Assembly (NCBI RefSeq): GCF_030028105.1
Contig: NC_092372.1
Coordinates: 168,770,058-168,834,057 of the forward strand
Direction of reading: 5' to 3'
Origin: Mobula birostris
Lineage: Eukaryota
DNA: 64,000 bases
Position numbers and translations under genes: made by a program
Shown: one piece after another, positions 2,811 to 63,662 of the stretch
Layout of the letters: every line of letters begins with the position of its first letter
How positions within the stretch are numbered: the first letter of the stretch is position 1
The notes under the pieces: generated by a model
Told to the model about the DNA's origin: nothing
Databases searched by the model: none
Seen by the model: the letters and a program-made list of their open reading frames with translations, nothing else

Positions 2811-3331
2811 GCTCAGTTCAGGTCACCTCACTACAGGAAGGACGTGGAAACCATAGAAAGGGTGCACAGGAGATTTACAAGGATGTTGCCTGGATTGGGG
2901 AGCATGCCTTATGAGTATAGGTTGAGTGAACTCGGCCTTTTCTCCTTAAAGTGACGGGGGATGAGAGGTGACCTGATAGAGGTGTACAAGATAATGAGAG
3001 GCATTGATCGTGTGGATAGTCAAAGGCTTTTTCCCCAGGGCTGAAATGGCTAGTACAAGAGTGCACAGTTTTAAGATGCTTTGAAGTGGTACAGAGGAGA
3101 TGTCAGGGGTAAGATTTTTACACAGAGTGGTAAGTGCGTGGAATGGGCTGCCGGCGGTGGTGGTGGAGGTTGAAATGATAGGGTCTTTTATGAGACTCCT
3201 GGACGGATACATGGAGCTTAGAAAAATAGAGGGCTATGGGTAAGCCTAGGTAGTTCTAAGGTAAGGACATGTTCGGCACAGCTTTGTGGGCCAAAGGGAC
3301 TTTATTGTGTTGTAGGTTTTCTATGTTTCTA
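2811..3331 (+). mobile_element. CR1 family B 3' fragment (about 520 bp)
   Basis: Encodes SPHYRKDVETIERV...ELRKIEGYG; tail ttctatgtttcta. Confidence 0.9.
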
Positions 3332-14984: not shown

Positions 14985-15737
14985 CACTTTGGAAGGACAA
15001 ACTCCAAGGCAGAGTACAAGTAAGTGGCAGGATACTTGGTAGTGTGGAGTAGCAGAGGGATCTCGGGGTACATGTCCACAGATCCCTAAAAGTTGCCTCA
15101 CAGGTGGATAGGGTAGTTAAGAAAGCTTATGGGGTGTTAGCTTTCATAAGTCGAGGGATAGAGTTTAAGAGTCGCGATGTAATGATGCAGCTCTATAAAA
15201 CTCTGGTTAGGCCACACTTGGAGTACTGTGTCCAGTTCTGGTCACCTCACTATAGGAAGGATGTGGAGGCATTGGAAAGGGTACAGAGGAGATCTACCAA
15301 GATGCTGCCTGGTTTAGAAAGTATGCATTATGATCAGAGATTAAGGGAGCTAGGGCTTTACTCTTTGGAGAGAAGGAGGATGAGAAGAGACATGATAGAG
15401 GTGTACAAGATAATAAGAGGAATAGATAGAGTGGATAGCCAGCGCCTCTTCCCCAGGGCACCACTGCTCAATACAAGAGGACATGGCTTTAAGGTAAGGG
15501 GTGGGAAGTTCAAGAGGGATATTAGAAGAAGGTTTTTTACTCAGAGAGTGGTTGGTGCGTGGAATGCACTGCCTGAGTCAGTGGTGGAGGCAGATACACT
15601 AGTGAAGTTTAACAGACTACTAGACAGGTATATGGAGGAATTTAAGGTGGGGGCTTATATGGGAGGCAGAGTTTGAGGGTCGGCACAACATTGTGGGCCG
15701 AAGGGCCTGTACTGTGCTGTACTATTCTATGTTCTAT
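14985..15737 (+). mobile_element. Young CR1 family A 3' fragment
   Basis: Intact ORF 15104-15676 with about 12 of 190 residues differing from the copy at 1514-2587; tail ttctatgttcta. Confidence 0.95.
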
Positions 15738-26303: not shown

Positions 26304-26849
26304 ACATAGAAACATAGAAAGCCTACAGCACGATACAGGCCCTTTAGCCCACAAAGCTATGTCGAACATGAAATTACCTAGAGTTACCCATAGCCCTCTA
26401 TTTTTCTAAGCTCCATGTACCTATCCAGGAGACTAATAAAAGACCCTATCCTATCTGCCTCCACCACCGTCGCCGGCAGCCCATTCCACGCACTCACCAC
26501 TCTCTGCGTAAAAGCTTACCCCTGACACCTCCTCTGTACCTACTTCCAACCACCTTAAAACTGTGCCCTCTCATGCTAGCTATTTCAGCCCTGGGAAAAA
26601 GCCTCTGACTAACCACATGATCAATGCCCCTCATCATCTTAAACACCTCTATCAGGTCACCTCTCATCCTCTGTCGGTCCAAGGAGAAAAGGCCGAGTTC
26701 ACTCAATATATTCTCATAAGGCATGCTCCCCAATCCAGACAACATCCTTGTAAATCTCCTCTGCACCCTTTCTATGGTTTCCACATCCTTTCTGTAGTGA
26801 GGCGACCAGAACTGAGCACAGTACTCCAAGTAGGGTGTGAACAGGGTCC
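26304..26849 (-). mobile_element. CR1 family B 3' fragment (about 545 bp)
   Basis: ORF 26494-26865 LEYCAQFWSPHYRKDVETIERV; ttctatgt tail. Confidence 0.9.
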
Positions 26850-37749: not shown

Positions 37750-38960
37750 CCACTCAGGTCATTCATTGCATCATGAAGACATATAACAGTTCATGTTCCA
37801 AGCCCACACTGATAATGCTCCCCACTCTTTCTGTGCTACGTTGACAACAGCATTGGTGCTGCCTCCTGCTTCCATGCCGACCTTGTCAATTTCATCAACT
37901 TGCTTCCAACTTCCATCCTTCCCTCAAATTTATCGGTCTGTCTCTGACATCTTTCTCCCCCGTCTCGATCTCCCTGTCTCCGTCTCTGGAGACAAGACTA
38001 TCTATTGACACAGTTGATGTCAGAAGTTTACATACACCTTAGCCAAATACATCTAAACTCAGTTTTTCACAATTCCTGACATTTAATCCTAGAAAACATT
38101 CCCTGTCTTAGGTCAGTTAGGATCACTGCTTTATTTCAAGAATGAAATGTCAGAATAATAGTAGAGAGAATGAGTTATTTCAGCTTTTATTTCTTTCATC
38201 ACTTTCCCAGTGGGTCAGAAGTTTACAACAAGCGTGTGCGAGCAAGGAGGCCTACAAACCTGACTCAGTTACACCAGTTCTGTCTGGAGGAATGGGACAA
38301 AATTCCAGCAACTTACTGTGAGAAGCTTGTGGAAGGCTACCCAAAACGCTTGACCCAAGTTAAACAACTTAAAGGCAATGCTACCAAATACTAACAAAGT
38401 GTATGTAAACTTCTGATCCACTGGGAAACTGATGAAAGAAATAAAAGCTGAAATAAATCATTCTCTCTACTATTATTCTGACATTTCACATGCTTAAAAT
38501 AGTGATCCTAACTGACCTAAAACAGGGAATGTTTTCTCAGATTAAATGTCAGGAATTGTGAAAAACTGGGTTTAAATGTATTTGGCTAAAGTCTATGTAA
38601 ACTTCTGAGTTCAACTGTATCTTTTCTAAGCCTACTCACGCTTTCAGCTATCTTGACTGTACCTCTTTCCACCCTGTCAATTATAAATGCGTAAAAAAAT
38701 AACTTTTCTCAGTTCTGCCCTCTCTGCTGCATCCGTTCCCATGATAAGCTGTTCCATTCTAGAACATCTAAGATGTCCTTCTTCTTCAAATACATGTAAT
38801 GGGGTTTCCTTTCCACCACTGATGCTGCTATTGCCTGCATCTTCTCTATTTCCAGCACATCTGCCCTCATCCCAACCTCCTGTTGCCATAACAGTGATAG
38901 TGTTTTCTTTGTCCTTACCTAACACCACATATCAAACCACTCTTCCAATCTTGTCAACAA
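37750..38960 (+). mobile_element. Penelope-like RT fragment split by a Tc1 insertion
   Basis: Frameshifted IGAASC.HADLVNFI..NFHP.LKF...LDL.VS.SGDK, then after the insertion F.KPT...SYLD.TS.HP. Confidence 0.75.
38011..38617 (+). mobile_element. Sleeping Beauty-like Tc1 (IR/DR group) non-autonomous element, 607 bp
   Basis: Inverted repeats of about 216-220 bp (38011-38226, 38398-38617), each with outer and inner tcagaagtttaca-type DRs. Internal KRVRARRPTNLTQLHQFCLEEWDKIPATYCEKLVEGYPKRLTQVKQLKGNATKY. Right TA intact, left CA. Confidence 0.95.
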
Positions 38961-39669
38961 ACAACAGTTATACGAAACAAACACCAGCTTACGGCAAAGA
39001 ATTGTCTCAGACTTGGTGAAATTGGAATCACAACAGAGAACAACACACTGGCATCAGAAACAGCTTGTGGGAAGATTATCTGCAATATTTGGTTGATTCA
39101 TGCTGTGTATTTGTGGTTTGAACACAGTTTTGAATGGTCAGTGCCGCCTGTCCATTGGGGACCATTGCACAATCATGTGGTACTTACCCAAGGGTCCATT
39201 GCTTTGTTTTACCAAAGTGCTGAAATATTCCTCCAGTTGCTGACATTTGAATTGAACACTGTTTGGTCTGGTTTAAGCCCTGTGGATGTGCGGACAGTTT
39301 ATTTATTACCCTCGTTTATTGAATGGAATATTGCCAGTTCGTTTTATGAATATGTTGTGAGTGAATAAAGAGTTAATTACAAGTTGCGTAATAAGAAGAA
39401 AGTAAGATGAGTGAATTGAAGCATAGAAATGATGTCAGCGATCCTGAAGTTGGGGCTGGCAAAAGAGAAATTAAACTTACTACTAAACCTTTGGTCAGTA
39501 GAATTGAAAGTTATCAAAAGGAATATAAAACAAATACGAACAAAATTAAAGGTTTAATACCATCAATTAAGGATCTAATAAAAAATAAAGGAGATGTCTT
39601 ACAAGTGCAATTTCATCTTGAGGACTTGACTAATCTCTGTGAAGCTGTTGATAAAGTATGACTATGACT

Positions 39670-40258
39670 ATGCCATCAGGTTGGAGGCTACCCAGGTGGA
39701 ATATAAGGTGGCGTTTCTCCAACCTGAGTGTGACCTCCGCAGCAGTAGTGGAGGCCATGGATTGACATATCAGAACGCGAAGTGGAATTAAAATGGGTGG
39801 TCACCAGGTGATCCCACTCCTTCTGGCGAACAGAGCATGGCGCTCGGCAAAACAGCCTCCCATGAACATCAACTTCTCAAAGTCCCAGTAATGTTGCCCT
39901 CTACCCCACCATTCCCCACCCCCTTTTCCATCTCTCACCTTATCTCCTTGCTCATCCATCACCACCCGTTGGTGCCCTCTTCCCTTTTCCTTATTCCACA
40001 GCCTTCTGTCCTCTCCTATTAGATTTCCCCTTCCCCAGCTCTGGGTATTTTCACCAATCAACTTTCCAGCTGTTTACTTCACCCCTCCCCCTCTCAGTTT
40101 CACCTATCACCTTGTGTTTCTCCCTCCCCTCCCCCCATCTTTTAAATCTACTTGTCTTTTTTTCTTCAGTCCTGCTAAAAGGTCTTGGCCTGAAACGTTA
40201 ACTGTACTCTTTTCCATAGATGCTGCCTGGCCTGCTGCGTTCCTCCAGTATTTTGGAT
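39670..40258. mobile_element. Penelope-like 3' fragment with 5' inversion
   Basis: 39670-39860 runs in the same orientation as 34876-35075, while 39861-40258 is the opposite strand of 34480-34877. Confidence 0.8.
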
Positions 40259-42026
40259 GTAAAACAATGGTTGACTCAACCATGTTACACTGAAGGTTAT
40301 GTGTCTCACATTCCAACAGACGATGTCACTCAGATTCCAAGGCATATTTTGACTATGCATGTAGTAGATGATCCACAAGGTGATGCGAAACTGAATGACA
40401 GTGTGTCAAATGTCAGCCCTCAAAGCTCTGCTGTAGGAAGAAAACCTTCTGTATCTACATCCTCCTCTGCATGCATTAAAACAGAAGCTGATTTTGCTGG
40501 ATTAATGGCATGTCAATAATTATTGAAAGACAAACATGCGCTGGAAAAGCAAGAGGAACAACTATGGAATAGGAAGGAACAGCTTAAGATGGAGGAAGAA
40601 ATTGCCGCACATATGGCTAAAGTAAATGTGCTAAGGGCTTCAAGTGTAGCAAGGGCTAAAAGTGCTCCAGCAGCATGGTCTTATGGTGTCAATTCTTATA
40701 TTGAAAAGGCACAGGAAAAAAAAACAATCAATATCAATGTTGATTCATTTGTTCCTCATGTATTTGGGATACATTAACAAAACCCAAAGTAGTAGTTCAG
40801 GGGGTTTACACTCAGCTTGCACTAATGAGGCGCTCTGAACCGATGACATATCCAACAGCTCAAAGAGCTCATGGGGAAATTCACCTGCAGCATAGAAACA
40901 CTCCTGTTTCAGACGTTAGAGGTCAAACAGTATTATTGATATTATGAAGAAGCAAAGTGAAATAACAATCTTATTGGCACAACAACAATGTATTTTATCT
41001 TTGTCTAAAAGAGAGATTCAAATCTTAGATGGCGATCCATTGTAGTATCATGCATTCATGAAGGCCTTAGAAAGCAAAACTGACAGCCATAGTGACTGCC
41101 TCTATTTCCTTGAACAATAAACTAGGGATCACCCTAGAGAACTTGTGAAATGTTTTCAGCATGTCAACCCTAAGAAAGGATATGTCACAGCTAAGGCTTT
41201 ATTACAGGAATATATTGTAACGAACAGAAAATTGCATCCACCTACAAGCAAAAGGCTCTTTCTTGGGTACTTATCAAATTTGAAAATGTAAAAGCCCTTC
41301 AAGACTACAGTGTTGTTCTTAGAGGCTGTTGCAATGCCATGGAAGAAGTGCAGTACCTGCGTGAGCTGGACATGTCTGCCAAATGTCAATTGTTGTAAAG
41401 AAACTGCCTTACATTATAAATGGAGAACGGAACTGCAAGAAAGGCACAACCATAAGAGTATTGTTGATTTTATTGAAGGGCAAGTAAAGATTGCAACAGA
41501 CCCGGTACTTAGGAATATACAGTCACCTGCAATAATCAAAGGTGTGAATACAACTAAGTTACAACTTTGTTCTAGGACTAAAGGAAGCAGATTTGCCACT
41601 ACTGTGGCCATTGTGGAAGTAAAGCTGAATCTGAACCTCGAACTAATGGAAGGGAAATGGTCTTGCCAGCCAAAGGGGTTTGTCTGTTCTGCAAAGGTGA
41701 AGACACATTGGATATATGCCCTTAGCTGGAGAAAAAGGCTCATATTGAGAACGTTGTCTTTCTAAAGGAAAATGTTGTCTGCTTTGACTGTTTGTGTACA
41801 GGATACATCAGCAAGGATTGTAGGGCATGATTTTCATGCAAGGTAAGCAGTTTTAAGCATCCCAGCACATTTCATATTCACACTAACGAAAAGAATGCAG
41901 AATCAAAACATGCCGTGAAAGAATCAGCATTGAGCGGTGCCCTGATACATAACGGCCTTACAGGGGCTGGCGATCATAATTCCAGTACAAGTGAAATCTA
42001 AGGGAGTAACAAGACTGTGGTTACTT

Positions 42027-42118
42027 ATCAAAGTTGCTGGTGAACGCAGCAGGCCAGGCAGCATCTGTAGGAAGAGGTGCAGTCGACGTTTCAGGCTGAG
42101 ACCCTTCGTCAGGACTAA
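42027..42118 (-). mobile_element. About 92-bp Penelope terminal-repeat insertion
   Basis: Same family as 36150-36240 and 40165-40258; interrupts the BEL protease region. Confidence 0.85.
42081..42116 (-). ncRNA. Minimal type I hammerhead ribozyme motif
   Basis: AGUC-CUGACGA-AGG(GUCUCAG)CCU-GAAA-C-GUC-GACU: stem I AGUC/GACU, core CUGANGA, stem II AGG/CCU, GAAA, palindromic ACGU in place of stem III, GUC cleavage triplet. Confidence 0.7.
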
Positions 42119-43048
42119 GTCCGACTTCACAGGAAAAAGGACACATATTCTCTTGAGCACCACGGGCAATAGAAGGTCATGAGCAGCTACACTGTTTCAG
42201 AATTGCAAGTGGCTGGCTTAGATGGTGAAAACTATTGTGAACTACCTAACATCTTTAAATAGGAGAGTATTCCTGTCCATGGAGGGAACAATCCATGACG
42301 GGGATCTCCAGGGATGGTCTCACCTGAAGCATGTCCATTTGTCAGAGATTGATTCAGAAATTAAGCTACTAATAGGGACAAATATGCCTAAAGCATTGGA
42401 GCCATTGCAAGTGATTCGCACGGGAGAACTATGTTGGGTTGGACTGCAAATGTACTACTGAAAAGAATCAATGGTGACAGGAGAGACTATGCATGGCCTG
42501 AGCCCACAGTTAACAGGATCTCAGTTTTGAACTTGGATGACCTTTGGCAGTGGCAGTTCAAGGCAGACTTCCCTGAATGCAGGCAAGATTAACAATTTGG
42601 TTTGTCAAGATAAGACCACAAGTTCATGGAGCTGGTTACAAATTCTGCAAAACTATTAGACAGACACTATCAAATTAGTTTACCTTTGAGAAAGGAGGCT
42701 AACATGCCAAATAACAGGAAGATTGAAGAACAGCATGCTCTAAATTTAAGGAAGAGGTTTAAAATGGATTTCTCATTTCAGATAGACTACACAGCTTCCA
42801 TGATGAATGTCATCTCTAAAGGTCATGCCGAAACAGTGCTAGCAGAGGATCTGGAATGCAGTGATGGGAAAGTCTGGCATATTCCACATTATGATGTTTA
42901 CCACTCCAGAAAAGGGGAACTTCATGTTGCGGTTGAATGTGGAGTGACTTTTCAAGAAATATCAATGCTTAGCTCTTACAGGGACCGGATCTTACTAGCT
43001 CACTGGTTGGAGTCATAACCAGATTCAGAAAAGAACCAGTGGTGATCA

Positions 43049-47185: not shown

Positions 47186-50100
47186 TTCAATATTTTTTAT
47201 TAGTTTCTACATAAAAGAATACAAAGTATATATAAAGGTTGAAAAAAATGACTACCGATTACATTATATCTATTCAAAATAACAATCTCATTACCCTGTA
47301 TTCATGTAGGTTAGTCAAAGTTATGTTGAAATATACTAATTTATTACAAAAAAAATCTAACCCCTACCAAGACCAAAACTGTTTATTAAGGAGAAAAGAA
47401 GGTAAAATACCTTCTCGTATAATAAAAATTAAAAATAGTCAACATCTGAATTTAAACAACGAATTGAAAGTCTTGAAAGTTTTGAAAATAATTCAGAAAG
47501 GGTCCCCACAATGTTTGGAAGTCTTGACGAGGTTCAGAAATTGAATAGCGAATCTTCTCTAAATCTAAGCATGACATAACATCGCAAAACCATTGAGCAT
47601 GAGTAGGAGGAAAAACATCTTCCCATTTAAACAAAAGCGCCCTCCTAGCTATAAGAGAGCTGAAGGCCAAAATATGTAAATCTGATGTCTCCAGCTTGAT
47701 ATCTTGTCCAGCAACAATACCAAATAGGGCTGTCAGAGGATTAGGCTTAAAATTGACTTTGAAAAGTAAAGAAAAAGTTTGAAAAACTTCCTTCCAATAT
47801 TTTACAAGACATGGACAAGTCCAAAACATATGAATTAATGAAGCTTCTCCATTTATTGCATCTGTCACAGTAGGGAAATATATCCAAATAAAAACGAGAT
47901 AGCTTACCTTTAATCATACGGATTCAATGTACCACCTTAAATTGTATGAGGGAATGGCGAGCACATAGCGATGATGTATTAACCAGTTTAAAAATTTCAT
48001 TCCAAATTTGCTCAGATATTGATGTCTGTAAGTCTTGTTCCCAGAGATTCTTAATTTTGTCTAAAGGAATATTCCTCATCTCCAGTAATACACCATAAAT
48101 ATTAGATATTGAACCATTATAAAAAGGTGTCAAATTAAAAATTATGTCTAGTAGGTTCTTATCTGACCTTATAGGAAATGTACATAATTGAGATCTTAGA
48201 AAGTCTCTAATTTGTAGATATCTAAAAAAGTGAGTTTTGGGACAGCGATGTTTAGCTGACAATTGCTCAAATGAAAAAAGATCTCCTCCAACAAACAGAT
48301 TCCAAAAGTATTTAATACCCAACCTGTCCCATTCTTTAAAAACTAAATCAGTCATGGAGGTTTTTAAAAAAAAATAGAATAAATGGGACTAGAAAGGGAA
48401 AATCTCAATAAACCAAAATGTTTTCTAAATTGAATCTCAGAGTATGTTTAACTATTAAATTATCAGTTAGTTTCCTTACAAATAAAGGAAGTGAGGATCC
48501 AAGAAGAGAAATAATAGAAAATTTACTAACAGAATTAGCTTCTAAAGAAACTCATACCAGACAGTCTACATGATTAATATAATATATCCGAAACGCAAGA
48601 TATCGTATATTAACTGCCCAGTAATAAAACCTAAAATTAGGTAAGGCTAAACCTCCAGACTTCTTTGGTTTTTGAAGATGAAATTTATTTAAACAAGGAC
48701 TTTTTTTCCATATATAGGAGGATCGAATAGATTCAAGTGAGTCAAAAAAGGATTTAGGAATAAAAATGGGTAAAGCCTGAAAAAGATACATAATTTTAGG
48801 TAGAATATTCATTTTAATAGAATTAATTCCTCCGACCAACGATATTGAAAGAGGTGACCAATTTAATAATATCTTTTTTACATGGTTCAATAAAGTAAGT
48901 TTTCTTTAAACAGGTATTTGTAATTCTTAGTGATTGTTACACCCAAATAAGTAAATTGATTCCTTACAATTTTAAACGGAAGATTAATATTAACTAATAC
49001 CAAATTATTTAAAGGAAATAATTCATTCTTATGTAGATTCAATTTATATCCTGAAAACTGGCCAAAACAGGAGAGTAAAGAAAATACACAAGGTAACAAA
49101 ATTTCAACATTACAGATAAAAAGCAATATATCATCAGCGTAAAGCGCGATTTTGTGGGTGATAGCTCTCCTTGAAATACCACAGCTATCATTAGATTCTC
49201 GAAAAGCAATAGCAAGGGGTTCCAAAGCTAAATCGAAAAGTAAAGGACTCAACGGACAACCTTGTCTAGTTCTGCAGTGAAGTTTTAATGGTTTGGAATT
49301 TTGAAAATTAGTAAGAACTCGAGCAGAAGGAGATAAATAAAGTAATTTAATCCATTGAATAAAATCTGGTCCAAAATTAAATTTTTCTAAAGTTTTAAAT
49401 AAATAATTCCATTCAACCCGATCGAAGGCTTTCTCAGCATCTAAAGATATCACACATTCCGATATCTCCTGAGAAAGAGATTAAATAACATTTAATACAC
49501 GGCATATATTAAAATAGGAATGTTGGCTTTTAATAAATCCAGTCTGATCACCAGAAATAATAGAAAGTAAAATATTTTCAACCCTACGAGCCAGAACTTT
49601 AGGAAGAATGTTAGTATCTATATTAAGTAATAAGATTGGCCTATATGAAGAGCATTCAGTTGGATCCTTATTCTTTTTTAGGATAAGTGAAATAGAAGTT
49701 TCATAAAAAGATTGAGGCAAACTACCTAATTTGAAAGAATCCAAAAAGACTAAGTACAACTGCGGTATAATTAATGAAGAAAAAGCCTTATAAAATTCTC
49801 CTGAAAATCCATCTGGACCCGGAGCCTTCCCCGAGTGTAATGAACGTATAGCCTCGGCTATTTCCTCATACGAAATGGGTTGATCCATCCATTTGCAATT
49901 ATCTGCAGAAAGTGCAGGGATATTTAATTGATCTAAAAAATTGTTCGTTACAGTATTATCTTTAGGGGAGTCAGAACTATAAAGTTTAGAATAGAATTCT
50001 CTAAAGGTATCATTTATTTCAGAGTAATCATTTGTCCTATCACCATTCATTTTGCAAATTTCTTTAATTTGTCATTTAACTACAGAAGTTTTTAATTACT

Positions 50101-52819
50101 ACTACTACTCTACTACTACTACGTCGACTCAGGCCTAGGGGGCCAGCGTCGGGCATGATGACAGACTCTCCACTTCTCTTAATTGGTTGGCCAACACTTT
50201 GCCTGATTTATCTCCATGAATGTAAAATTGAGTTTTATCTTTTAAGAAGTTGAGTTTCAATTGGATATCTTAACAGAAGATCATATTTAGTTTGAACTTC
50301 AACACGTCTTTTATACAAAACAGGATCTGGAGCTATAGCGTATTTTGATCTAATTGTTTTAATTGATTGGCTAATTCAATTCTTTGTTTATTAGCTTTAT
50401 TGTTAACACTCACAGTATAAGAAATAATTTGTCCTCTAATATAGGCCTTGAAAGTATTCCATTCAATAAGATTTAAGTCTCTTCCTTTTTATTCTCTTCA
50501 AAAAACAAAATAATATGCTTCTCTAGAAATTTTAAAAATTCCTTATCTGATAACAAAGTTGTATTAAAACGCCAGAATCTGTTGGTTTCAAGAAGACCAG
50601 GGAGTTTTAAAGATAAAAATATAGGACCATGATCTAAAACAGCAATCTCTTTATATTCACAGGAACGAACTGATGAGATCATTTGACTATCAATAAAAAA
50701 AAAATCAATCCTGGAATATGTGTGGTGAACATGGGAAATAATCCAATATTCCCTATCTATGGGATGTAAGAAATGCCAAACATCAACTATACCACACTTC
50801 AATAAAAATAATCGTATAAACAAAGCTGATTTATTAAGAGACGCTGGTTAACAGATGATTGGTCTAAGATTGGGTCGAGCCAACAGTTAAAATCTCCTCC
50901 CATCACCAAAGAATAAAGATTCAGATCTGGTAAAAAAAGAAAAAAAAATATTCAAAGAATCCTGGGTCATCATTGGCAAATACTATTATCTTATTATCTA
51001 GTTTTTCTGAGACTATAACAAAACGTCCATTAGTAGCAGACTTTATGTTGGACAAAGGAAAGTGTATTATCTATAAGAATCAAAACGCCTCTAGATTTGG
51101 CCTGAAAAGTGAAAACAAAGTCCATTCCAACTGCTAAAAAAATGTAGATATCACATTTGCGTGTGTGAGTTTCTTGTAAAAAAAAAATAGGGACCTTAAA
51201 TTTCTTAATATAAGCATAAATCTTATTACATTTAACAGGGCAATTTAATCCTTTCATGTTAAAACTGAGTAAATTAATAGTTTGGTCCATTTTTAATATT
51301 ATTTAAAGGAAGGATTAAAATGTAAGTTAAAAACCAAGCTATAAGCCTTGAGAAATGGTAACCAAGCAACAAGTTGGCTAAAAATTCGTAAGCAGCTTCC
51401 AGAAAAAAAACATAACCCCGCCCACCTCCCAAAGGAAGAAAACCGACCAATAGAAAGTCGGCATCTACAAACTACTGACAACCCCCCAAAAAACCGGGTG
51501 ATCGCTCCAATTAGTTACAAGGATATTTATATTCCAACCTAGACTAAACAAAACCCAAACAAGAGATTCAGCTCTCGTATATCAAAAATACAGTATTAAA
51601 AAATACAAAAGGAAATTAGTTACAAAGGTTTATGAAAAATAAAAGATACAATTATTAATACAGAAAGACATTGAACATTAATCTTATATCTTCATGGAAA
51701 AACAGACTAAGCAATTAGCTTTCGAATTTTAAAAAAATCTTTGTGCTTCAACATTCAAAAGAAGCCATTCGAAGGATCCATCATTAATTAGATTCTCAGT
51801 CAAACTAGGTAGCCAAGGGACGGGTTAAAACCCTTGTTAAAGAAAACCCCAACAGAGCTTGTTTAAACTTAACACACTCCTGCATAACCTCAAGCCAATA
51901 ACCTTCCAGAATCTTAATGTTCCACCCTATAACCAGACATGCCCCTTCGACGGAATTTGCAAATTAGAAGTTTTCACTTAATCTTATGTCTTCATGTAAG
52001 GAGAAAGTACACAGTTAGCCTTGGGATTTAACCTTCGGATTTTTAAAATTTCTGTGCTTCAATAGTCGAGCAGAACCATTCAAAAGAACTGTTTTTAAGT
52101 GTAATTCTGAGTCGGGCTGGGTAGCGAAGGGAAGGCTTGAAACCCATATTAAAAAACTTGGACATAACTTCTTTGAATTTAACACATTCCTGCATAACCT
52201 CAGGTGAATAATCTTCAACAATTCTAATCTGCGCAATCTGTGAACTTGTTCAATCATAGGCACAGACGTCAAAATCTCCAGAAATAATTCTTGCAAAATG
52301 TTTGCAAAAAACTCCATAGGATGGTTACCTTCGATTAATTCTTCGAGACCCATAACCCATAGGTTGTTCCTTCTATTTCTAATTTCTAGATCGATAATCT
52401 TCTGTCCTAACTTTTTGTTGGACTTCGATTGCTTTTCACAAAGCTTCTGCAATTCATCCACTTCTGTTTCCAGAGCCGAAAAATTTGATACGTTTATTGT
52501 GTTTCTTGATACGTTTATTGTGTTCATTAAGAGTTTGTTGAATAGAGTCCAATTTACCATCTACTTGTTTAAATTCAGGGCTGAATTGTTGAAACTTCTC
52601 AGAGGCTTCTCGTGCATGACTTTGTAGCAATTCCATAATAGAATCCAAAGAGGCAGGAAAATTATCCTTTTTAGTACCTCTGGCACTCCTTCCAGCCATA
52701 ATGAAAGAATATCACACTTAAAAAAAAGACGTTTCAAGACGGTTTGAAAATAGTAAGATAATTAAAATTGGAGCAACGGCAGATTGCTGTTACTTCATCA
52801 GCCACCACAAGGAAATCTC
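47186..52819 (-). mobile_element. Near full-length L1-clade LINE (about 5.6 kb), inactivated
   Basis: ORF1 52015-52699 (LEIRNRRNNL, IEQVHR). ORF2 47452-51290 (SFNMKGLN, FLQETH, SRIDFFF, GKAPGPDGF, SLDAEKAFDRV, QGCPLSP, YADD, GGLALP, HMFWTCP) with frameshifts. TSD agaaattccttttctt (47170-47185) / agaaattccttctctt (52820-52835). Confidence 0.95.
50098..50178 (-). mobile_element. 81-bp RTE-like 3' end with (TAG)n tail inside L1 ORF2
   Basis: TSD ttaatt (50092-50097, 50179-50184); removing it restores LANQLKTSV. Confidence 0.8.
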
Positions 52820-53145
52820 AGAAATTCCTTCTCTTGGGATCTAGCACTACTGATTTTCCCAATTTTCTTGCATATTGAAATCTGCCATGATTATCATTAC
52901 ATTGCCCTTTTAAACACCTTTTCTATCTCCCATTGTAATTTGAACCCCACATCCTGGCTATTGTTCAGACACCCATCAGAGTATTTCTACCTTTGCAGGT
53001 TTTTAAACTCTACACACAAGGATTACACGTCTTCCAATCCAATATCACCTCTTTCTAACACAAGAGCGAAGTTAAATGCAATCTAGCCCAAAGGAGAGGG
53101 GGAGGGAGGGAAGTGGGGTAGAGGGAGGGAGAGAGGGAGAGAGGG

Positions 53146-53666
53146 AAACATAGAAAACCTACAGCACAATACAGGCCCTTCAGCCCACAAAGTTGTGACA
53201 AGTATGTCCCTACCTTAGAAATTACTAGACTTACCCATAGCCCTCTATTTTTCTAAGCTCCATGTACCTATTCAAAAGTCTCTTTAAAATACCCTATCGT
53301 ATCCGTCTCCACCACCGTTGCCGGCAGCCCATTCCACGCACTCACCACTCCGAGTAAAAAACTTACCCTTAACATCTCCTCTGTACTACTCCCCAGCACT
53401 TTAAACCTGTATCCTCTTGTGGCAACCACTTCAGCCCTGGGAAAAAGTCTCTGACTATCCACATGATCAATGCCTCTGATCATCTTATACACCTCGATCA
53501 GGTCACCTCTCATCCTCCGTCGCTCCAAGGAGAAAAGGCCGTGTTCACTCAACCTATTCTCATAAGGCATGCTCCCCAATCCAGGCAACATCCTTGTAAA
53601 TCTCCTCCGCACCCTTTCTATGGCTTCCACATCCTTTCTGTAGTGAGACGACCAGAACCGAGCACA
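53146..53666 (-). mobile_element. CR1 family B 3' fragment (521 bp) inserted in a GA-rich tract
   Basis: FWSSHYRKDVEAIERV; 18-bp flanking repeat ggagagagggagagaggg at 53128-53145 and 53667-53684. Confidence 0.9.
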
Positions 53667-53786
53667 GGAGAGAGGGAGAGAGGGTGGGAGACAGAGGGAG
53701 GGAGTGAGAGAGACAGACAAAGACACACACAGGTCCCCTCAGGGAGAATATAAGTGCATATGAAGTTATTTCAAAACTGCTGAGTA

Positions 53787-61428: not shown

Positions 61429-63662
61429 ATAGAAACATAAATAGAAATATAGAAAACCTACAGCACAATACAGGCCCTTCGGCCCACAAAGCTGTGCCGA
61501 ACATGTCCTTACCTTAGAAATTACCTAGGTTTACCCATAGCCCTCTATTTTTCTGAGCTCCATATACCTGTCAAGGAGTCTCTTAAAAGACCCTATTGTA
61601 TCTGCCTCCACCACCATAGCCAGCAGCTCATTCCATGCACTCACTACTCTCTGCATAAAAAACTTACTCCTGACATCTCCACTGTACCTACTTCCAGGCA
61701 CCTTAAAACTGTGCCCTCTCATGTTAGCCATTTCGGCCCAGGGAAAAAGCCTCTGATTATCCACACAATCAATACCTCTCATCATCTTATACACCTGTAT
61801 CAGGTCACCTCTCATCCTCCGTCGCTCCAAGCAAAAAGGCTGAGTTCACTCAACCTATTCTCATAAGGCATGCTCCCCAATCCAGACAACATCCTTGTAA
61901 ATCTCCTCTGCACCCTTCCTATAGTCTCCACATCCTTCCTGTAGTGAGGTGACCAGAACTGAGCACAGTACTCCAAGTGGGGTCTGACCAGGGTCCTATA
62001 TAGCTGCAACACTACCTCTCGGCTCCTAAACTCAATCCCACGATTGATGAAGGCCAATGCACCGTATACCTTCTTAACCACAGAGTCAACCTGCGCAACA
62101 GCTTTGAGTGTCCTATGGACTCGGACCCCAAGATTCCTCTGATCCTCCACACTGCCAAGTGTCTTACTATTATACTATATTTTATATACTATATATTATT
62201 TATACTTTTTTTTTTATTAAGTGCAATCGTGAACAATAGCCAGATCAGAAATGCTGATCAAGTCAACTAGTTCCCAAACAGAACTCTGATAGGCCAATCA
62301 GATGGTTCACTGCTGCTCAGCAATAGAACATAAAACAGGCACAAGGGTCGCTAGCCCCTGTACCCCAGAAACACACCTGAGCGGTGCGGCGGAGGTATGT
62401 GCTATGCATGACCTGATCTGAAAGCATCATGTTGACTCATAACAGATCATGCTCACGGTGGAACAGCTTAGTCAAGGATGGGGTGATCAGCACAGATGGA
62501 CAAGTTATACCTCCACTATCCCTTCTGCCATCATATTTGACCTACCAAAATGAACCACCTCACGCTTATCTGGGATGAACTCCATCTGCCACTTCTCAGC
62601 CTAGTTTTGCATCCTATCAATGTCCCGCTGTAACCTCTGACAGCCCTCCACGCTATCCACAACACCCCCAACCTTTGTGTCATCAGCAAATTTACTAACC
62701 CATCCTTCCACTTCCTCATTCTGGTCATTAATAAAAATCATGAAGAGTAGGGGTCCCAGAACAGATCCCTGAGGCACACCACTGGTGATCGACCTCCATG
62801 CAGAATATGACCTGTCTACAACCACTCTTTGCCTTCTGTGGGCAGGCCATCTCTGGATCCACAAAGCAATGTGCCCTTGGATTCCATGCCTTCTTACTTT
62901 CTCAATTAGCCTTGCATGGGGTACCTTGTCAAATGCCTTGTTGAAATCTATATACACTACATCTACTGCTCTACCTTCATCAATGTGTTTAGTCACATCC
63001 TCAAAAAATGCAATCAGGCTTGTAGGACACGACCTGCCTTTGACAAAGCCACACTGACTATTCCTAATCATATTATGCCTCTCCAAATGTTCTTAAATCC
63101 TGCCTCTCAGGATCTTCTCCATTAACTTACCAACCACTGAAGTAAGACTCACTGGTCTATATTTTCCTGGGCTATCTCTACTCCCTTTCTTGAATAAGGG
63201 AACAACATCCGCAAACCTCCAATCCTTTGGAACCTCTCTCGTCCCCATTGATGATGCAAAGATCATCACCAGAGTCTCAGCAATCTCCTCCCTTGCCTCT
63301 CACAGTAGCCTGGGGTACATCTCGTCTGGTCTCGGTGACTTATCCAGCTTGATGCTTTTCAAAAGCCTCAGCACATCCTCTTTCTTAATATCTACATGCT
63401 CAAGCTTTTCAGTCCGCTGTAAGTCATCCCTACAATCGCCAAGATCCTTTTCCGTAGTGAATACTGAAGCAAAGTACTCATTAAGTACCTCTGCTATCTC
63501 CTCCGGTTTCATACACACTTTTCCACTGTCACACTTGATTAGTCCTATTCTCTCATGTCTTATCCTCTTGCTCTTCACGTACCTGTAGAATGCCTTGGGG
63601 TTTTTCTTAATTCTGTCCGCCAAGGCCTTCTCATGGCCCCTTCTGGCTCTCCTAATATCTGT
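61429..63662 (-). mobile_element. CR1 family B, longer 5'-truncated copy with nested insertion
   Basis: ORFs 63300-63665, 62601-63086, 61812-62150 and 61531-61830 form one RT with few stops or frameshifts (KSPRPDEMYPRLL, FNKAFDKVPH, FADDTK, RKIEGYG). Confidence 0.95.
62182..62524 (-). other. About 340-bp poly(A)-tailed, structured retroposed insert of unknown origin
   Basis: Interrupts CR1 between tatactatatt and ctgccatcat; AATAAA runs directly into an A10 tract (62206-62218); several internal hairpins. Confidence 0.65.

Follow-up and report, generated by a model that had tools for sequence, protein, structure and literature searches.

The locus described here raises the question of how DNA closely resembling the Sleeping Beauty (SB) transposon came to lie in the genome of a ray, and how it acquired the unusual pair of ends that it carries. 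The sequence analysed is a stretch of 64,000 nucleotides from Mobula birostris (contig NC_092372.1), referred to below as the window, and all coordinates are positions within it. An earlier note, made from the letters alone, had placed an SB-like Tc1 element at 38011..38617, and these limits proved exact: a dead Tc1 element of 607 bp opens with CAGTTG at 38011 and closes with CAACTG at 38617, and is bordered by CA before its first base and by TA after its last. Its parts, and the remnant in which it sits, are as follows.

37932..38922 (limits approximate), plus strand: decayed retroelement remnant hosting the insertion, from a frame test
38009..38010, plus strand: left copy of the target-site duplication, now CA and presumably TA before one transition
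38011..38227, minus strand: left arm, an inverted SB right IR/DR by comparison, with the outer DR intact, the inner DR truncated at the junction and no half-DR enhancer
38228..38229, no strand: junction of the inverted right end with the transposase remnant, from sequence comparison
38230..38394, plus strand: final 54 codons of an SB-type transposase with the stop codon (SB residues 287-340), without start, DNA-binding domain or DDE triad
38398..38617, plus strand: right arm, an SB right IR/DR with inner and outer DR and one 5-bp deletion
38618..38619, plus strand: right TA copy of the target-site duplication

The two arms, at 38011-38227 and 38404-38617, lie in opposite orientation and agree at 90.4% over 219 columns (E 4e-83), and their local inverted score of 330 compares with a maximum of 28 among 200 shuffles. 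They measure 217 bp and 214-220 bp, and 176 bp separates them. As in the IR/DR group of Tc1/mariner elements, the inverted repeats are some 200-230 bp long with CAGT ends, and the target site is TA, intact on the right and now CA on the left; three of the four DR cores were recovered by a DR scan at two mismatches or fewer, the fourth being present and shortened at the junction. Between the arms, 38230-38394 translates into 54 residues and a stop, the C-terminus of a transposase, which in the earlier note differs from SB at about 7 of 54 residues. The comparison bears out that figure, with 47/54 identity to the SB transposase of the pT2 vector and 46/54 to SB100X (PDB 5CR4 chain). The 54-codon remnant is incapable of making transposase. 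The element is thus short and non-autonomous and retains both ends in the manner of a MITE, having no ORF start while still holding the 54-codon remnant inside. No second copy of the element or of its transposase piece was found within the 64-kb window, and an Rfam search of the window gave no matches. Two other identities were considered and rejected, namely Gag_p30 for the 54-residue piece (Pfam E 0.01, below the cut-off, no Tc1 Pfam family being matched either) and an RNA function suggested by the hairpin fold (z -31), which merely restates the inverted repeat.

The flank at 37932..38922 we take, from a motif, to be a Penelope-like reverse transcriptase; none of six flank pieces matched Pfam, and the label is unconfirmed. 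If the element is removed together with one dinucleotide, the flanking frame is open across the site, and if the element alone is removed the frame shifts. This frame test, judged by that flank motif, argues for a TA duplication with a later transition in its left copy. Among 138 frames of at least 75 residues in the window, Pfam found reverse-transcriptase pieces and weak matches only, and no host exon. A CR1 protein encoded there is closest to two proteins of Hypanus sabinus, at 85% and 88% identity; the values are 71% and 68% for two sharks, 56% for Pristis and 50% for a turtle (all among the best 120 of 5230 matches, which name no teleost). Together with the Mobula hypostoma match described below, this makes the host most likely a myliobatiform ray, in line with the earlier note's view that it is not a teleost. 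Other retroelements of the window include CR1 3' ends at 1453-2611 and 14985-15737, one with a 365-residue open frame, which are 96% identical over 754 bp and by that likeness represent a young CR1 family, and an older CR1 family whose members, 85-87% alike, lie near 2811-3331, 26307-26849, 53145-53667 and 61437-61996. A decayed element at about 39395-43015 has frames like those of what we presume to be a Bel/Pao-type LTR retrotransposon, with no Pfam support, and on the minus strand 47455-52560 holds a long decayed non-LTR retroelement, presumably L1-like, in which an ORF1-like frame lies upstream of pieces of reverse transcriptase (Pfam RVT_1, E 9.5e-26, for 48890-49480). Two CR1 reverse transcriptases (P0266 and P0280) with 64-73% identity to the ray LINE come from 1.6-kb contigs filed as Klebsiella pneumoniae and Proteus mirabilis, which are likely vertebrate DNA contaminating bacterial records.

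For comparison at the DNA level we used two SB-type loci, L001 and L002, the only ones of that type among 25 loci from a metagenome scan; they are called salmonid-type here on the strength of protein identity, their C-terminus being like those of Oncorhynchus, Salmo, Hucho and vector proteins. In its metagenome contig, L001 (1275-2297) is a natural intact SB-type transposase frame of 340 residues, with SB HTH, Tc3 and DDE domains in Pfam, both IRs and TA flanks, and over 220 bases of the right IR it does not differ from L002. A third locus, L003, matched the element at 79% over 81 bases, and the other 22 of the 25 gave no DNA match to it at E 0.01.

Against L001, the element's left arm aligns with the right IR at 207 of 219 positions and with the left IR at 149 of 223, and overall its identity is about 95% to the SB right IR and 63-67% to the left IR. 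The K2P distances to the right IR are 0.052 for the left arm and 0.068 for the right arm, with 0.074 between the arms themselves, and either arm stands at 0.509 from the left IR; the two IRs of L001 are only 65.3% identical to each other. By this comparison both arms of the ray element are SB right ends, rather than one left and one right. The claim of IR/DR ends in the earlier note therefore stands as regards the inverted arms, which are 90.4% alike, and needs correction in that there are two right ends and the left inner DR is truncated. A scan for DR cores also found in the left IR of L001 a half-DR-like site, which from the available text of two accounts (PMC5224488, PMC7827188) we take to be the half-DR enhancer, and the ray element has no counterpart of it. 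Without asymmetric ends or a left IR with a half-DR, this copy is best described as a derivative of SB-type DNA and not as a canonical SB element. In the text available of three reviews (PMC7827188, PMC8151067, PMC4505599), the half-DR of the left end enhances SB transposition without being essential to it, transposition requires all four DRs, and a doubled left end boosts activity. The available part of Wang 2017 (PMC5224488) reports that SB moves a MITE-like substrate in cells at about 10% efficiency, and that no MITEs were found for zebrafish Tdr1. An SB-type element with two right ends only 176 bp apart and no enhancer would be expected to be a poor substrate for transposition.

In DNA overall, the element is 91-95% identical to salmonid-type SB. 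Its bases 217-607 match L001 at 362 of 396 positions, and its non-coding arms match the right IR of the intact L001 at 95.0% (left) and 93.5% (right), so that the close likeness to SB which the earlier note had described, in the non-coding IR as well as in the 46-47 of 54 residues, is as high as it was thought to be. The 54 codons agree with L001 at 151 of 162 bases (dS 0.106, bootstrap 0.014-0.234, over about 35 synonymous sites; dN 0.062) and give dS 0.075 and dN 0.079 against L002. Both coding DNA (151/162) and right IR (93.5-95%) exceed the 80% identity by which Sleeping Beauty is recognised. Relative to L001, four substitutions are common to both arms, the left arm alone carries five, including one at the junction, and the right arm alone ten, which suggests that the active ancestors were about 2% apart in non-coding DNA and that decay within the ray accounts for most of the distance. 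As to vectors, the available text of PMC6362248 derives the IRs of SB vectors from a minnow element and not from a salmonid.

Five residues separate the ray piece from salmonid-type and vector SB, and all five occur together in 3 of 244 aligned relatives. Four of the five are common to a Prochilodus-type lineage and absent from salmonid SB. In a tree of 18 C-terminal segments (98 columns), none of whose 15 branches is starred, the ray-type rows fall outside both the salmonid-type (91/95) and the Prochilodus-type (87/93) groups. Taken together, these two observations point to a donor that was probably a sister of salmonid SB, and not necessarily itself salmonid. The direction of transfer, from fish to ray, rests on the wide teleost range of SB rather than on this tree. 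The relatives P0002 and P0098 both show all five ray-type residues, the latter, in whose cluster P0386 also falls, being far more decayed (73% to L001).

The best named match of the transposase piece, at 91%, is a gene model of Mobula hypostoma, a species in which a 199-Mb contig carries a second ray copy showing all five of the diagnostic residues. The protein concerned (P0003, XP_062905703.1) is a predicted TTC33 isoform which closes, over residues 140-235, with sequence of SB origin: 18 residues come from the antisense strand of the 5' part of the transposase gene (15/18 to L001) and are followed by 67 residues of sense C-terminus (85% to L001). This points to a second, inverted Mobula SB copy exonised in a predicted gene model. 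Its antisense 5' coding sequence implies that Mobula contains 5' portions of the element, and the joining of that sequence to a sense C-terminus implies that strand switches occur in the ray SB family. No full-length or intact ray copy emerged from these comparisons, which leaves the earlier note's suggestion that such copies could yield new SB variants a conjecture. Mobula hypostoma is the only chondrichthyan name among the best 120 of 317 protein matches, and none occurs among 82 of 82 matches in a collection that includes Hypanus, Pristis and sharks, protein sets being in both cases rarely a place where dead elements are held. In the available text of Jia 2022 (PMC9777934), the hosts of SB are 107 ray-finned species, drawn from 33 orders, together with a single mollusc and no chondrichthyan, the sole chondrichthyan entry being a ZB-like element in one species; no chondrichthyan names were found in its supplement as available. 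The main text of Zhang 2020 (PMC7070016), in the part available, mentions neither sharks nor chondrichthyans. We found no literature on SB in rays in a search that lay outside Repbase, Dfam and subscription journals, where an annotation may exist.

The earlier note had proposed horizontal transfer, and the distances agree with it: a dS of about 0.11 in the coding remnant and a K2P of 0.05-0.07 in the arms lie far below expectation for chondrichthyans and teleosts, whose lineages separated more than 400 My ago. As had been anticipated, the divergence is also not proportional to that of the hosts, since in the same Mobula protein the dead SB piece is 85% identical to L001 and TTC33 itself is 73% identical to Salmo salar TTC33 (104/143, a host control at the protein level from one gene; 63-72% to five other vertebrates). 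At a mean vertebrate rate of 3.1e-9 per site per year (PMC7070016, in its available text), more than 2 substitutions per site would be expected across that split, against the 0.05-0.07 found in the arms. The filter described in the available text of Zhang 2020 (PMC7070016) takes at least 100 codons and a TE Ks below 99.5% of host core-gene Ks; set against it, we have a dS of 0.075-0.106 from 54 codons only, and a host control consisting of one gene at the protein level. We hold the horizontal origin of the element to be very probable. Prokaryotic genome contigs and viral contigs, scanned for the IR pattern, gave no matches and so no vector candidate. The element had no BLASTN match in plasmids or E. 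coli genomes, and a protein scan of viral contigs gave six pattern matches, none of them a relative. Mean private decay per arm is about 3.5%, from which the element would be roughly 11 My old at 3.1e-9 per site per year, and several times older at slower elasmobranch rates.

Two other explanations would dispense with a transfer. Vertical descent from the jawed-vertebrate ancestor under strong conservation may appeal to selection, which can act on IR binding sites and transposase, and would require a rate below 1e-10 per site per year in both branches, each of more than 400 My, if the arms are to differ by 0.05-0.07. Teleosts are not known to evolve slowly; the spacer between the DRs is free to vary (65% between the two ends of SB itself), and TTC33, a host gene under selection, is less conserved than the SB piece. 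The slow evolution of chondrichthyans lends the idea something (7e-10 per generation in the epaulette shark; PMC10587355, available text), and the neutrality of DNA transposons within their hosts (PMC7070016, available text) counts against it. It is nearly excluded already, and we give it next to no credence. That salmonid DNA or an SB vector entered the ray assembly by contamination or misassembly is conceivable in that SB vectors are widespread as laboratory DNA, and we consider it highly improbable: the five residues unlike salmonid-type and vector SB recur in the chromosomal copy of Mobula hypostoma (3/244 relatives), both arms carry private decay and indels, and the target duplication lies within a host retroelement. 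The 7-kb region is, moreover, represented in sequencing runs from a single sample of organism A (four runs, with 0.74-0.81 of its words) and a single sample of organism B (four runs, with 0.46-0.51), a result at the level of the region and not specific to the element; word shares in runs of organisms C-G were small (0.05-0.10) and play no part in the argument.

With horizontal transfer as the preferred origin, we propose that an SB-clade element, sister to salmonid SB, entered an ancestor of the ray tens of My ago at most, a step in which we place high confidence. The double right end could have arisen, at about even chances in our estimation, by gap repair after excision, in which synthesis of the new strand would have run through the right IR and the gene's 3' end before turning back to copy the right IR a second time, the fold-back product then reading right end, 54 codons, right end. 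This two-right-end form would subsequently have been mobilised whole by cut-and-paste in trans, an event that would have produced the TA duplication, and would have decayed neutrally since, which we find rather probable; transposase for the insertion at the TA site would likely have been supplied by another copy. The exact ends on a TA duplication suggest movement as a unit, and since the arms are 7% apart, equal to the divergence between ray copies, the form may be about as old as the insertion and date from the active period. The need for four DRs and the efficiency of about 10% for MITE-like substrates argue against mobilisation in trans, unless the damage to the inner DR came later. The account as a whole, a dead two-right-end SB element of a family horizontally acquired from a bony-fish SB lineage and mobilised in trans, appears likely to us.

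A different history of the ends can be imagined in two ways. The ray element may have been natively symmetric and have suffered a plain deletion, a possibility that draws on related IR/DR families with near-symmetric IRs (DTSsa1; PMC2198921, available text), on the position of the break inside the inner DR, which is a transposase binding site, and on the presence of the same four ray-type bases in both arms. Its cost is that the left end must have been replaced within the roughly 2% of right-IR divergence, the salmonid-type left IR being only 65.3% identical to the right, and the inversion-type rearrangement in the other Mobula copy indicates that strand switches do happen in the ray SB family; we regard native symmetry as doubtful. 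Alternatively, a normal left-right element may have inserted and been rearranged once in place, so that the two-right-end form was never mobile. There is one copy in the 64-kb window, and the truncated inner DR and absent enhancer predict a poor substrate, as such a history would have it, but the 7% divergence between the arms marks an old event belonging to the active period, and the two exact termini stand on a TA duplication. We think a rearrangement in place unlikely.

Mobilisation in trans of a fold-back derivative, which we continue to prefer, sets the element beside several known systems. With Sleeping Beauty/Tss1 (DD34E/Tc1; PMC9777934; PDB 5CR4) it shares the CAGTTG termini, the TA target and IR/DRs of about 220 bp, the right IR being 93.5-95% and the C-terminal 54 residues 85-87% identical. 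It differs in its chondrichthyan host, a group absent for SB and SB-like elements from Jia 2022 as available (PMC9777934), in having two right ends and no half-DR enhancer, in its length (607 bp against about 1.64 kb), in lacking a transposase ORF, and in the five shared ray-type residues, four of which are also Prochilodus-type. The SB-related Tc1 elements of Prochilodus, Muraenolepis and Pygocentrus (P0026, P0022 and P0176), compared by protein and not by IRs, share those four; P0026 and P0022 are 81-83% identical over the 54 residues and hence farther from the ray piece than salmonid-type SB (87%). The closest precedent is the transfer of Group 1 Tc1 (DTSsa1) between lamprey and teleosts, likewise an IR/DR Tc1, 95-99% identical across lineages more than 500 My apart and in neutral decay after arrival; it concerns another Tc1 family and host pair, and a parasite-host route was proposed for it (Kuraku 2012, PMC3516227, available text), whereas no vector is known for the ray. 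Internally deleted Tdr1 copies and mariner MITEs of the MADE1 type (PMC5224488, available text) are similarly non-autonomous with both ends retained, the Tdr1 derivatives having more than 400 bp between their IR/DRs, in contrast to the 176 bp and the duplicated end of the ray element.

If this account is true, the Sleeping Beauty clade extends to the cartilaginous fishes, none of which is listed in the available text of the 2022 survey (PMC9777934). In the available text of Zhang 2020 no kind of transfer is commoner than that of Tc1 elements among aquatic vertebrates (975 transfers, 94% involving ray-finned fishes; PMC7070016), and for that reason transfer alone would be of little surprise to specialists; what we describe is a structurally odd, new derivative whose family is known and whose host group is unreported for the SB clade. 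It would also supply a specific candidate for a horizontal transfer behind part of the Tc1/mariner excess of rays and skates, in which these elements make up 2.3-3.3% of the genome against 0.14% in sharks according to PMC12361510, whose available text does not mention horizontal transfer. The two-right-end build, furthermore, constitutes a natural test of the view that a left end bearing the enhancer is required by IR/DR elements and that these give rise to no MITEs. More tentatively, an SB-clade transposon that came from bony fishes may, in devil or eagle rays, have spawned an amplified, MITE-like family with two right ends 176 bp apart and no enhancer. Were such a family to exist, a form of substrate that the cell assays and the Tdr1 survey argue against would have amplified, and a ray transposase variant or the ray IRs would relax the IR/DR checkpoint and offer variants for the design of SB vectors.
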